Positions 14,680-23,035 of a stretch of DNA of 64,000 nt are shown here, piece after piece. The translations under genes and the position numbers were made by a program. This stretch comes from an uncultured Alphaproteobacteria bacterium. Lineage in GTDB: Bacteria > Pseudomonadota > Alphaproteobacteria > Rs-D84. Each line of letters begins with the position of its first letter. The first letter of the stretch is position 1. The notes beneath the pieces were generated by a model, which searched no databases, was not told the DNA's origin, and worked only from the letters and a program-made list of their open reading frames with translations. The stretch is from assembly GCA_951801825.1 (NCBI GenBank), contig CATOOF010000001.1, forward strand, positions 200,936 through 264,935. Direction: 5' to 3'.

Positions 14680-14756
14680 CGCGGAGTAGAGCAGCCCGGT
14701 AGCTCGTCAGGCTCATAACCTGAAGGTCTGTGGTTCAAATCCACACTCCGCAACCA
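14680..14756 (+). tRNA. tRNA-Met (CAU), initiator-like with a C1:A72 mismatch
   Basis: Cloverleaf read by eye. Acceptor CGCGGAG/CTCCGCA has position 1 unpaired. Anticodon loop CUCAUAA. The T-arm GGTTCAAATCC and a CCA end are encoded. Very similar to E. coli tRNA-fMet. Confidence 0.85.
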
Positions 14757-14898
14757 AGATTTTCCGCAGAATTCTGCGGATTTTTTATTACTCTCCCCAC
14801 CATCAAATTTTCCCGTTTGCTATGTATTTGCTATGGATGGCATTTGCGACCATTAACGATTTCCGTTGAATATTAAGGATAATAGTATAGGCTAAATC

Positions 14899-15645
14899 AT
14901 GTCTTCAAAGGAGATTTGTATGAATTATACAGAATGGGTTGATATTAAGCCACTGAAAAAATGCACGTTGCAACAGGCATGTGAATTTGCCGCCTTTAAT
15001 TGGGAACCGGTGGACGACTTTACCGACAAGACACTGAAAAGACCATCCGACCGAACAAGCGCAAATGAACGCAACGACACAATTTGGCAAAACAAAATGA
15101 AAACAGCCGAAGACAAGATAACATATTTCCTTAGAGCTAATAAACTGATTGCCTCCGGCAAGGTCAAAACCAAACGGATTGAAAAAATTGACCTGTCAAC
15201 TGACTGTGTTATTAACATTGAAAACAATGCAATAACAGACGACGCACACACATACACGGACATAGAACTTGATTTCTATGAACTGCAAAGCATACTAAAA
15301 CACCCACTGTCACGAATGCACTTTACATTGTCGCTGGAAAACGACTGTATTTTCTTAACCATTGATGATAACGCTGTAAAAATACTCGTCAAACGCCTGC
15401 AGGCCACAGCCAAAAACACCAGCATCATCAGAAATATTATGAACAACCCGAACAAACTGATTACACGCGACGAATTTGCAAACATTGACAAGTACGATAG
15501 AATTGACCAAATACTTGACAGCTGCTTACCAAGTGACATTTATCATCTGTTTTTTGATTGCACATCAAATTCGGCACTTTTTAACCCAAACGCATCCGAT
15601 ATAGATTTACAAAAACACGGCATAAAAACACTGACAGTCGTATAA
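14899..15645 (+). CDS. Hypothetical protein (island cargo, 248 aa)
   Basis: AT-rich ORF followed by a rho-independent terminator at about 15664-15713. Confidence 0.4.
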   Translation: MSSKEICMNYTEWVDIKPLKKCTLQQACEFAAFNWEPVDDFTDKTLKRPSDRTSANERNDTIWQNKMKTAEDKITYFLRANKLIASGKVKTKRIEKIDLSTDCVINIENNAITDDAHTYTDIELDFYELQSILKHPLSRMHFTLSLENDCIFLTIDDNAVKILVKRLQATAKNTSIIRNIMNNPNKLITRDEFANIDKYDRIDQILDSCLPSDIYHLFFDCTSNSALFNPNASDIDLQKHGIKTLTVV

Positions 15646-15799
15646 AAGCGTCATCATTTCCATAAAAAAACGCACCCAAATTCATAACAAAGGGTGCTTT
15701 TTTTATGCAAAGAAAAAGACACATACACCTTTCGTCTTTTCCTCAGTATTTTCAATCAGCATAAGGTATCATAACATTATAAAACCAAAAGGTTATACT

Positions 15800-16009
15800 A
15801 TGAATGAAATTAAACTCCAACTACTTGACCAAAAGATGGCGGCGACCTATCTGGGAACAACCGTCGCCAGTATGAACACATTGCGCGCCCAGAACAAGTT
15901 GAACATCCCGTTTGTTCGCTTTGGACGTCGCATTAAATACAAACGCGAAGACCTTGACGCATGGATTGCACAAAATCGCGTTGTACCAACAACAGACACC
16001 AACTTCTAA
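15800..16009 (+). CDS. AlpA/excisionase-family helix-turn-helix DNA-binding protein
   Basis: 69 aa. The pattern YLG...S....L......P.V.FG.R..Y...DLD.WI is typical of the AlpA/Xis phage regulatory family. Confidence 0.6.
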   Translation: MNEIKLQLLDQKMAATYLGTTVASMNTLRAQNKLNIPFVRFGRRIKYKREDLDAWIAQNRVVPTTDTNF

Positions 16010-16132
16010 CCTTTCGTTTATGACGCTGAACTGTGCTTTACATGGCTATTTACCAGCGCATAGACCAAACACAAAACCACAACTGCCATAAATACATGCG
16101 CAGTTAAAGTAACCATTAGGGAACAGATAATC

Positions 16133-21282: not shown

Positions 21283-21283
21283 C

Positions 21284-21910
21284 TCAATCCCGTTCCCATT
21301 TGGCTACGTCATCCCAAATTCCAACTAAATCCATAAATTCCTTAAATAAAACACTCAGTTTATACGGATATATATCAGGGTTAAATGTTTCAAAAAATCC
21401 GGTTCCCAACAATGACAACAAAACAGCTGAACCTTTTGTTTTACTAACAGCTTTCTTTACAGCAAAAACATCTGCCGGCGCCAACTTTATAATTCCAAAA
21501 AGTTCACGATGTTGCTTTGATATAGCAATACTCGTCATTGGGTCTTTGTACGCTTTAACAATTTCCGCCAAAAATTGAATTTGCTCATAAGACAATTCAG
21601 AAAGTATTGTATTAAAATGATGAAATCGGGACGAAGACAACTGCTCTTTATTATTCATCCCAAGTATCAGCCTTGCCAAAAGACGAATATTATTCTTTCC
21701 GACCCCTTCATTAATATCATTTAATAATCTATAGACAATGGATAAAATATCATCTTGATTAACACGCGAAAAATCCCCATCACGCACTTCTTGCAAGATA
21801 ATCTCTTGCAGTTCTTTTTGTCTTCTTTGTAAAAAATGTTTGGCCATCTCTGTTGGCACGCCAATCAAAGAAGCCGCATCAGATATACAAGCAACCAATA
21901 AACCAGACAT
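21284..21910 (-). CDS. Hypothetical protein (208 aa) immediately upstream of int in the same operon
   Basis: Its stop abuts the int start. Overlaps the upstream DinD-like gene by 1 nt. Confidence 0.4.
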   Translation of the reverse strand: MSGLLVACISDAASLIGVPTEMAKHFLQRRQKELQEIILQEVRDGDFSRVNQDDILSIVYRLLNDINEGVGKNNIRLLARLILGMNNKEQLSSSRFHHFNTILSELSYEQIQFLAEIVKAYKDPMTSIAISKQHRELFGIIKLAPADVFAVKKAVSKTKGSAVLLSLLGTGFFETFNPDIYPYKLSVLFKEFMDLVGIWDDVAKWERD

Positions 21911-22734
21911 TACTCTTTATCAACCTTTGTTAGCAACTTTGCATTTTGACCCGTCACAACGGACTTCCCTGTTTCCTGTTCCAATGTCAACCGCGCCTGA
22001 CGTGCCACATTACCGCCACGCGATGCGACCTTCATAGTTTCCTTAAAACCCTGTGGATTTTCCTTTCTGGCGATTTCAGTTGTGGATAATTCCGCCAACA
22101 TATTCAAAACCAATTCAGCATTGCTCATATTGTCGCGTAAAGACTCCTTATACAGTCCCTTCATGCGCTTATAATCACGGGTTTTCATCCCAGACCATGC
22201 GCGCGTTATTTCATCCGTCAATAACGCATATTCCAATCCCTGCTTTACACCGGCCTTGTCCCATTCGTTTGTTAATTCCTTGCGGACTTCAATAGACTTT
22301 AAGCGTTGCGCCACCCATTCCGGCGAATGCCCCATACGTTGATAATAACGCAGGGCGCGTTGTATGGCGATTTCAGGGTCGGAGATTTCATCTATGCGCT
22401 GGCTACCAACACTGGCCAACCATAATTTAAAAGGTTCGGCCTTCTTAGACGGTATTGATTGAATAAGACGCAAAATCTGTTCAGTATCAGCAACATCAGT
22501 ACTATAAAATTTACCATCTGAAGATTTTAATTTCAGTTGTCCGATTTTTTCGGACAACTGACTACCTTCTTGATTTAACTGTTTTTTCAAATCACTCCAA
22601 TATTTACGAGGTCTGTCCGTACCGGTCAATGCCGCAATAACATCAACGACAGAAAAATACCACTTCTCAGCCTCTTCATCCCAAGTGGTTCTGATATTTT
22701 GGTTTTCAAACAGTTTTAAACTTGTATCCGCCAT
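21910..22734 (-). CDS. DinD-like / Bro-N domain protein, paralog 2
   Basis: 274 aa. N-terminal WYFSVVDVIAALTGTDRPRKYW. About 55-60% identical to paralog 1 over the core. Same size as E. coli DinD. Confidence 0.55.
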   Translation of the reverse strand: MADTSLKLFENQNIRTTWDEEAEKWYFSVVDVIAALTGTDRPRKYWSDLKKQLNQEGSQLSEKIGQLKLKSSDGKFYSTDVADTEQILRLIQSIPSKKAEPFKLWLASVGSQRIDEISDPEIAIQRALRYYQRMGHSPEWVAQRLKSIEVRKELTNEWDKAGVKQGLEYALLTDEITRAWSGMKTRDYKRMKGLYKESLRDNMSNAELVLNMLAELSTTEIARKENPQGFKETMKVASRGGNVARQARLTLEQETGKSVVTGQNAKLLTKVDKE

Positions 22735-22998
22735 GGCACGACCCCTTTCTTTATCAAATCCGCAAAAATCCGGGAATATTCCATTTTGGAAAACCCCAGT
22801 TGTAAAGAAATTCTTTACAACTTACCCCGACCCATAACCCGGACACTTTTTGCTATATATTTGCTATACGCGGCGTCTTTTGCTATGGATTTTCGTTTTT
22901 TGCTATTAACTTTTGTTAATTTTATGATATTCTACAATCCGCAGAAAATCAAGGAAAATTTAGAATTATTTATCGTAATTTATCACCTGACCCATTAA

Positions 22999-23035
22999 CT
23001 GAAGGTCTGTGGTTCAAATCCACACTCCGCAACCA
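22999..23035 (+). repeat. attR: a 37-bp copy of the tRNA-fMet 3' end
   Basis: Exact match to 14720-14756. Followed by a cccggcccgtccggg hairpin plus T-run, probably the original tRNA terminator. Confidence 0.8.

Follow-up and report, generated by a model that had tools for sequence, protein, structure and literature searches.

A tRNA-fMet-integrating element with a candidate HUH Rep and swappable cargo in an uncultured gut alphaproteobacterium

What kind of mobile DNA occupies the initiator tRNA gene of an uncultured gut alphaproteobacterium, and has it moved recently? In the 64-kb stretch of contig CATOOF010000001.1 analysed here (the window), the 3' part of tRNA-fMet is present twice, and a preliminary description made from the sequence had taken the DNA between the two copies for an integrative element. 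This element (8,279 bp, 14757-23035) is real and recently mobile, as seen from near-identical strains in which the same site is empty. We give a probability of about 80% to the reading that it is a site-specific integrative element with a core of integrase, AlpA-type protein and HUH Rep, which would replicate by rolling circle, would depend on a helper for its transfer and would carry swappable cargo.

The target tRNA, the repeat and the empty site

The features that define the site are the following:
14639-14666, + strand: promoter of tRNA-fMet, a perfect TTGACA-16-TATAAT
14680-14756, + strand: tRNA-Met(CAT), that is tRNA-fMet, found by ARAGORN and intact after insertion
14720-14756, + strand: attL core, the left 37-bp copy, beginning on the 3' side of the anticodon stem and reaching the CCA end
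14763-14790, + strand: element-borne terminator-like hairpin (14763-14780) and T run serving the rebuilt tRNA gene, missing in empty-site strains
22999-23035, + strand: attR core, the right 37-bp copy, the displaced 3' part of the tRNA
23042-23066, + strand: native tRNA terminator (hairpin 23042-23056)

The tRNA gene scores 62.3 bits with the Rfam tRNA model, in which its C1xA72 acceptor pair is marked as non-standard; this mismatch is a hallmark of bacterial initiator tRNA. The gene lies between the DUF374/LpxK genes on the left and the lipocalin-like and ABC-F genes on the right. The window contains just two copies of the 37-mer CTGAAGGTCTGTGGTTCAAATCCACACTCCGCAACCA, with 37/37 identity, and the similarity reaches 43 nt if two mismatches are counted. 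No third copy is present in the window at up to 3 mismatches, and 0 are expected from 100 shuffles. The exact duplication of the tRNA 3' end is thus confirmed, and the repeat is not a dispersed one, the possibility that the preliminary description had named as fatal to its claim. The interior is AT-rich, as had been stated: GC is about 0.40 between the repeats, against about 0.48-0.54 in the left flank and 0.42-0.46 over the first 2 kb of the right flank, so that the contrast is clear on the left and weaker on the right.

Occupied and empty alleles were located by exact-sequence lookup of the flanking proteins (DUF374 on the left, the lipocalin-like protein on the right), which led to contigs of many public assemblies. 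The empty attB was found in three independent assemblies, one from ENA (L003) and two from different JGI samples (L004 and L005). In all three, the DUF374 and lipocalin-like genes are 391 bp apart and the intact tRNA is followed immediately by GTTTCCCCCGGCCCGTCCGGG, which in the window is the sequence directly 3' of the right-hand repeat. Hence the junction of tRNA-fMet with the flank at 23036, which the preliminary description had proposed to look for, exists in near-identical strains: the flanking DNA of the empty-site contigs, compared over about 17-20 kb, is 99.95-100% identical to that of the window. The occupied allele, element and flanks together, is 100% identical over 10.8-11.4 kb in three other assemblies. 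Samples with the element include ERZ17984626, ERZ17984675 and those behind GCA_948477395.1. Presence and absence among strains so close imply a recent gain or loss of the element. The hairpin at 23042-23056 is taken as the native terminator because the same hairpin stands directly 3' of the intact tRNA in the empty-site strains.

Many short-read contigs from different samples (L006-L010, L017-L020, L023 and L032) end in or beside the 37-bp repeat. Among the short contigs that reach the element ends, L023 and L032 stop within the repeat and L026 represents attR. Such ends would be expected of assembly breaks induced by the repeat or of mixed filled and empty populations.

Related elements were sought by an integrase scan with one genome per species, which gave three loci (L033, L034 and L035), and a fourth (L060) was added through its Rep homologue. 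The loci of the integrase scan are all in metagenome-assembled genomes (MAGs) of uncultured Alphaproteobacteria, apparently drawn from a mouse gut catalogue and from Hadza human gut data. All four elements (4/4) sit at the same tRNA-fMet, between DUF374/LpxK and ABC-F, and the same exact 37-bp repeat bounds 6,881 bp in L033, 7,302 bp in L034 and 8,978 bp in L060. Relatives at another locus lacking the duplication, the other finding that was to speak against the claim, were not encountered; three of the four have the duplication. The exception, L035, has the tRNA copy but no right-hand repeat, and holds within the element (12966-13172) a second integrase fragment, 60% identical to the C-terminus, for which reasons it looks partly decayed; tandem accretion or decay is suggested.

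The identities of the element genes conflict with the relatedness of the hosts. L033 shares 89% identity with the window in the integrase and 94% in a Bro-N gene, and just 65-67% in LpxK and ABC-F. L060 is the closest host (83% in LpxK and ABC-F) but its integrase is only 78% and its Rep 63% identical, while the other Bro-N gene is again at 94%. Such a mosaic would be expected if the element moves horizontally. A core of integrase, 69-aa HTH_17 protein, Rep gene(s) and att arms is common to the window, L034, L035 and L060. These elements form a small family, seen so far only in uncultured gut-associated Alphaproteobacteria. With a filled site, a precise empty site and four sister elements in public assemblies, the locus offers a natural example of recent mobility in an uncultured gut lineage.

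Recombination and replication genes

The core of the element consists of:
14816-14834, + strand: two TTTGCTAT repeats, 11 bp apart, about 60 bp inside attL, also present in L034, L035 and L060
15800-16009, + strand: 69-aa HTH_17 protein of the AlpA/excisionase type, a core gene
16010-16132, no strand assigned: intergenic region between the HTH_17 and Rep genes
16133-16951, + strand: rep272, an in-frame fusion of RepN (residues 1-165) and RepC (residues 174-272)
20095-21282, - strand: P4-type tyrosine integrase (int), 395 aa, with Arm-DNA-bind_3 and Phage_integrase domains
22849-22906, + strand: four TTTGCTAT repeats within 150 bp inside attR, in an arm of about 190 bp

The preliminary description had named a tyrosine integrase and an AlpA/Xis-like helix-turn-helix (HTH) protein, and profile searches bear out both. 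The integrase matches PF00589 Phage_integrase with 77.2 bits (cut-off 27.1) over profile positions 2-169 of 172, the integrase family phrog_1 with an E-value of 1.8e-55, and PF13356 Arm-DNA-bind_3 (DUF4102) with 32.8 bits (cut-off 27). All that characterizes a P4-integrase tRNA island, namely the catalytic domain, the arm-binding domain, the direct repeat of the tRNA and the empty site, is found at this locus. The small protein matches HTH_17 with 34.3 bits, which makes it a candidate for both recombination directionality factor and regulator.

The octamer TTTGCTAT is present in 9 copies in the window, where 3 are expected, and six of them are at the element ends. The attR-side arm is 88-91% identical to those of L033 and L034, and the spacing of its four sites and their distance to the core are kept in L033, L034 and L060. 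Since the integrase has an Arm-DNA-bind_3 domain, these repeats are read as candidate arm-type integrase sites, by analogy with lambda and P4-type systems. Between the start of the neighbouring bro274 gene (see below) and the arm sites lies a near-perfect palindrome, GTTGTAAAGAAATTCTTTACAAC (22797-22822), present also in L034, which may be an operator or a terminator.

Over 1.84 billion representative proteins, HMMER found 51 relatives of rep272. The relatives of residues 1-165 are themselves proteins of about 165 aa, and those of residues 174-272 are separate proteins, 100-140 aa long, each with its own start methionine. RepN and RepC are indeed separate neighbouring genes in L060, where they are adjacent, and in L035, and they are separate in most database homologues. 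In an alignment of 27 RepN homologues, W56, E71, H79 and H81 are invariant and G73, Y141, K144 and E145 nearly so, the last three being found in at least 90% of the 27. The pairs H79/H81 and Y141/K144 make up H-x-H and Y-x-x-K, the metal-binding and catalytic motifs of HUH endonucleases. The match of rep272 itself to Pfam PF23343 REP_ORF2-G2P is weak (20-21.3 bits, under the gathering threshold of 27.8); 17 of the 27 homologues match this family at E-values of 0.01 or less (best 4.6e-7), and one matches the P2 gpA family. The AlphaFold model of RepN, built from the homologue alignment, has a pLDDT of 93, and structure comparison assigns the modelled protein to the HUH fold. On motifs and model together, RepN is accepted as a predicted HUH-Y1 nuclease of a rare, unnamed family. 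Of the HUH Rep candidate announced in the preliminary description, the nuclease part therefore stands on its motifs, family-level Pfam matches and structure comparison, with the amendment that its open reading frame (ORF) fuses two genes which relatives keep apart.

Outside this family, RepN has few connections. Its profile found nothing significant among PDB sequences, the Rep of adeno-associated virus appearing only at an E-value of 1.2; it had no match in phage records nor in 72,556 plasmid records, and IMG/VR contained no close relative of either the integrase or RepN. RepC is modelled as a three-helix protein with a conserved N-terminal motif, and gave no Pfam family, PDB sequence match, significant fold match or phage-record match. 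Several small terminases are among its non-significant fold matches (E 2.6-8.7), a similarity that we treat as a lead. In the intergenic region upstream of rep272, the blocks ATGGCTATT... and TGCGCAGTTA are conserved in three elements, making this region a candidate Rep operator or nick site.

Another Alphaproteobacteria MAG encodes a RepN homologue, distant at 29% identity, in an 11.8-kb island (L068, 3860-15769) that is flanked on both sides by a 64-nt repeat corresponding to the 3' part of tRNA-Ser(TGA). This island encodes a tyrosine integrase together with an RVT_1 reverse transcriptase and CTD12-MC8-DUF2326, a trio that we take to be a biological-conflict system. Its presence at tRNA-Ser implies that RepN marks a wider class of such islands. 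RepN would define a rare, unnamed HUH Rep family linked to tRNA-integrating, defence-carrying islands.

Around this core lie features that are kept to varying degrees:
14899-15645, + strand: orf248, with no family match; a 44% identical homologue occupies the same place in L060
19298-19471, - strand: orf57 (phrog_12550), 57 aa, semi-core, present in the window, L034 and L060
19462-19716, - strand: 84-aa minimal HNH-like protein, kept in L034 and L060
19725-19845, + strand: conserved non-coding block between the HNH-like gene and int
19767-19795, + strand: near-consensus extended -10 promoter, TTGCCA-17(TG)-TATAAT, directed antisense into int

The position of orf248 is occupied by unrelated ORFs in L034 and L035. 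The HNH nuclease of the preliminary description is retained as a weak HNH similarity, its 17.1 bits being under the cut-off of 21.4; L033 has an unrelated HNH gene at this position. Homologues of orf57, 58-68% identical, occur in temperate phages of Staphylococcus, Streptococcus and Microcystis, an unusually high conservation across phyla for a protein without known function. In both phage records inspected (Staphylococcus phi575 and a Streptococcus phage), the homologue is within the lysogeny/early region. The non-coding block at 19725-19845 is better conserved than the neighbouring genes across the window, L060 and L034, and may specify an antisense or switch RNA.

Cargo slots and a structured RNA leader

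The remaining genes of the element are cargo:
17098-17469, - strand: 123-aa Cys-rich protein with an N-terminal hydrophobic anchor, not kept in relatives
17491-17937, - strand: 148-aa Cys-rich putative lipoprotein, with an LVGGC lipobox read from the sequence
18290-19267, + strand: Bro-N/PDC-S13 paralog 1, 325 aa according to gene callers (the longest ORF begins at 18242)
21284-21910, - strand: orf208, which abuts int (TGA, one base, ATG) and overlaps the bro274 stop (TAATG)
21910-22734, - strand: Bro-N/PDC-S13 paralog 2 (bro274), 274 aa, in the slot between int and attR

The PADLOC model PDC-S13 is matched with E-values of 2.5e-128 by bro274 and 9e-107 by paralog 1; the PDC families of PADLOC comprise candidate defence genes only, and a literature search found no papers on PDC-S13. 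The paralogs had been called DinD/Bro-N in the preliminary description. The Bro-N half of this name holds, with 38.6 bits in the 274-aa paralog and 24.6 in the other, just below the Pfam cut-off of 25.6. The DinD half reduces to a partial similarity: NF008573 gives 33.2 and 24 bits, in the C-terminal part alone, far under the equivalog cut-off of 242. Paralog 1 is the gene that shares 94% identity with its L060 copy.

The contents of two slots change from one element to the next. Between int and attR, the window and L033 have the PDC-S13 Bro-N gene with the abutting 208-aa gene, and L034, L035 and L060 have RhuM/PDC-S05. In the middle slot, the window has PDC-S13 paralog 1 together with the two exported Cys-rich proteins, L060 has an HpaII restriction-modification pair, L033 has DUF3644/PDC-S19 and T5orf172/PDC-S57, and L035 has T5orf172 and two Panacea-domain proteins. 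Judging from these gene assignments, the swappable slots between the core genes appear to carry mainly candidate or real anti-phage genes. They provide a list of candidates for such a role: PDC-S13 with its 208-aa partner, RhuM/PDC-S05, PDC-S19 and T5orf172. We also considered orf208 as an integrase-overlapping excision gene of the PICMI kind. This is unlikely, as the gene travels with bro274, which it accompanies in L033, and is absent where RhuM occupies the slot and precedes int.

An RNA module lies in the 300 bp that separate the lipoprotein gene from the first Bro-N gene, and copies 71-79% identical to it are found in L033 and L035. Two further, unrelated metagenome contexts also have it, beside a large terminase gene in L040 and before a Stealth-family gene in L038. 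The coordinates are:
17935-18182, - strand: promoter and RNA leader of the lipoprotein gene (-35 TTGACT, 18182-18177; -10 TATTTT, 18159-18154; RNA, 18146-17943)
L033, 13221-13416: RNA copy
L035, 14349-14545: RNA copy
L040, 4279-4479, - strand: RNA copy
L038, 7032-7230, - strand: RNA copy

The RNA is about 200 nt long. Its 5' end is always GUAUCCGCA, and the 3' arm of its terminal hairpin holds a Shine-Dalgarno sequence, a few nucleotides upstream of the next gene's start codon; that gene differs in every copy. The consensus fold of the five distinct sequences has 54 pairs, with 90% of the cells paired. Seventeen pairs are changed on both sides, compared to 7.1 +/- 1.8 in shuffled alignments (0 of 500 reach 17) and 2-5 with slid partners. 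The minimum-energy fold of the single sequence is the closed form (-84 kcal/mol, z -4.6). The strands of helix P1 are GCAGAGGAUG and CAUCUUUUGC; the 5' segment GCAAAGGAUG can pair with CAUCUUUUGC, the strand that otherwise closes the Shine-Dalgarno hairpin, and this ability makes the RNA look like a switch. Thus, the segment 17943-18146 is probably a structured RNA, well supported by covariation and folding for so few sequences as five, and has the look of a switch. It is a candidate regulatory RNA for mobile-element cargo.

No Rfam family matched the window copy at E-values of 10 or less. The 3' half of the L038 copy aligns end to end with the 87-nt sRNA-Xcc1 model (RF02221), at 40.6 bits, under the gathering score of 53, and the helices of our consensus partly conflict with an Xcc1-like fold. 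sRNA-Xcc1 is a small RNA carried on integrons and genomic islands (PMC12189769). Both RNAs are thus carried on mobile elements; the one described here differs in its length of about 200 nt, its extra long-range helix and its hairpin sequestering the Shine-Dalgarno sequence right before the start codon. A covariance model found no copy in L060 and two weaker ones, covering core positions 19-160, in L035 (8530-8714, - strand, 52 bits) and L033 (5655-5809, + strand, 35 bits). Both are chromosomal, located between ABC-F and the element with a small ORF following each, so the RNA family extends beyond the element. The terminase neighbour in L040 had suggested a cos/pac site at 17940-18195; this was dropped in view of the module's own promoter, the covariation of the RNA and the hairpin over the ribosome-binding site. 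Matches of the 5' motif in viral contigs turned out to be chance matches inside coding regions.

Outside the element, right of the ABC-F gene, virB3, virB4 and two small ORFs (25595-29640 in the window) lie among ychF, dnaG and topA. They look like part of a scattered type IV secretion system.

Workings, rival readings and known systems

The preferred reading would work as follows. The P4-type integrase would recombine attP with the 3' half of the tRNA gene, assisted by the TTTGCTAT arm sites, two on the tRNA side and four on the int side. Insertion would rebuild the tRNA, with a terminator supplied by the element. The AlpA/Xis-like HTH protein would direct excision, acting by analogy as both directionality factor and switch; in PICMI, AlpA is necessary and sufficient for activation (PMC10803314). 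RepN would then nick the excised circle and start rolling-circle replication with its partner RepC, here fused to it. No ORF matches a capsid, tail, terminase, portal, relaxase, coupling-protein or mating-pore family in Pfam, PHROGs or NCBIfam, as the preliminary description had anticipated for capsid, tail and conjugation genes. Lacking particle and mating-pore genes of its own, the element must borrow a helper for transfer, which might be a phage, making the element a satellite, or a conjugative type IV system for which Rep would serve as relaxase, making it an integrative mobilizable element (IME). That such an element is an IME or phage satellite more than a prophage had been proposed already; the lack of structural genes and the intact integrase, HTH and Rep genes support this, with IME and satellite about equally likely.

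A minimalist phage satellite similar to PICMI, in which helper infection triggers AlpA-dependent excision, Rep makes rolling-circle concatemers for packaging in helper capsids and the cargo defends against competing phages, is possible, and we hold to it only tentatively. It would account for the layout of int, alpA and replication initiator, the small size and the lack of capsid-remodelling genes, all as in PICMI (PMC10803314), and it agrees with the phage G2P type of the Rep, the orf57 homologues in phage lysogeny modules and the constant presence of some HNH gene beside int. RepC has a weak fold similarity to small terminases, but this is not significant. The element fails the PICMI model, however, having neither a DUF3987/DUF5906 primase (no Pfam match in any ORF) nor the fis target; Pfam and PHROG searches returned no P4, PICI or PLE marker, no relative is present among IMG/VR viral contigs, and there is no known helper phage. 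The IME alternative, where the HUH Rep is a non-canonical relaxase acting at an origin of transfer (oriT) and the single strand leaves through a type IV secretion system encoded elsewhere, is about as likely and held just as tentatively. Precedent exists in streptococci, where 118 of 144 IMEs have relaxases related to rolling-circle initiators, including phage-type Reps (PMC5704250), and VirB3 and VirB4 genes are found in the chromosome 2.5 kb right of the element. These genes are no evidence of a conjugative helper, since they are also in empty-site strains, amid housekeeping genes. In the element we identified neither an oriT nor a coupling protein or relaxosome accessory gene, and the null result for RepN in plasmid records also tells against an IME.

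A decayed prophage or immobile remnant, inherited vertically, the empty sites being the ancestral allele of sister lineages, is very unlikely. Two findings speak for it. The predicted attP junction is ...CCCATTAA, the 37-mer and AGATTTTCCGCAG...; an exact pattern of the attP junction gave 0 matches in JGI metagenome contigs, and the right end with the core gave 0 in IMG/VR, so that no circular form was found. The state of L035 likewise shows that decay occurs in the family. But compact elements with an intact integrase, HTH and Rep core, and no trace of structural genes, exist in five host lineages; strains with and without the element diverge by no more than 0.05% in the flanking DNA; and integrase and cargo identities are at odds with host divergence. 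From the presence/absence polymorphism and the intact genes, the element may still be excisable. As for a repeat due to chance or to an assembly artefact, such as a chimeric contig of two tRNA-fMet loci, the breakage of many short-read contigs at the repeat might invite the idea. Its probability is close to nil, given identical junctions in at least 3 independent samples, on contigs of up to 160 kb, and the recovery of both junctions and of the empty site. There is, lastly, a bolder proposal that we rate as rather unlikely, in which the elements are an unrecognised class of minimalist "hitchers" of gut Alphaproteobacteria. RepN and RepC (small-terminase-like or origin-binding) would be their replication/packaging module, and their swappable defence or surface cargo would be gated by the new riboswitch-like RNA of about 200 nt, distantly related to sRNA-Xcc1, which would open or close the ribosome-binding site on a signal such as phage infection.

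How, then, does the preferred reading, a site-specific integrative element dependent on a helper, compare with known systems? In streptococcal IMEs, a tyrosine integrase is commonly found together with a rolling-circle-type relaxase, and the target is often a tRNA or another 3' end (PMC5704250). Like them, the element is small, has a tyrosine integrase, inserts at a 3' end so that the target gene is kept intact, has an HUH-type Rep as its sole DNA-processing enzyme with no mating-pore genes, and carries accessory cargo (toxin-antitoxin and restriction-modification systems in the IMEs). Unlike them, it is hosted by an alphaproteobacterium, not a Firmicute, and its Rep is near PF23343 (G2P/ORF2) and not Rep_trans, Rep_2 or PHA00330. 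It has an integration/excision module of its own (int and the HTH_17 protein). It corresponds only in part to the definition of an IME, as it has an HUH Rep and no known oriT, and with neither oriT nor coupling protein found, its mobilization is putative.

PICMI are satellites of Vibrionaceae with int, alpA and a replication gene, which replicate by rolling circle, are packaged as concatemers in helper-phage capsids and protect the host against other phages (PMC10803314). The element resembles them in size (6-9 kb), in int, alpA and a single replication gene, in its few cargo or unknown genes and in the lack of capsid-remodelling genes; co-location of int and alpA (PF05930 or PF12728), one of the PICMI criteria of the same study, is found here. 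It differs in its target (tRNA-fMet, not fis), its replication gene (an HUH nuclease, not a primase) and its helper phage, none being known. With P4 satellites and islands it shares the Arm-DNA-bind_3 integrase, a repeat of the tRNA 3' half starting at the anticodon arm, an AlpA-type regulator and variable defence slots, while it is far smaller than many tRNA islands; the P4 alpha primase-helicase, psu, delta, sid and epsilon had no Pfam, PHROG or NCBIfam match. Pfam and PHROG searches likewise detected neither the pri-rep module, terS, ppi/rpp and capsid genes of PICIs and capsid-forming PICIs nor the Zot-like ATPase and coat proteins of inoviruses, of which there is a Rep-like domain only. 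The pSAM2-type elements of actinomycetes have, as here, an int-xis-rep trio, a tRNA target and an HUH Rep for rolling-circle replication of the excised form. They differ in their Actinobacteria hosts and in an FtsK-like Tra for the transfer of double-stranded DNA, a gene that is absent here. In its workings, the element thus resembles IMEs and minimalist satellites, and it fits no named family. Current ideas are not overturned by it: the combination of integrase, AlpA and replication gene is familiar from other small tRNA islands.

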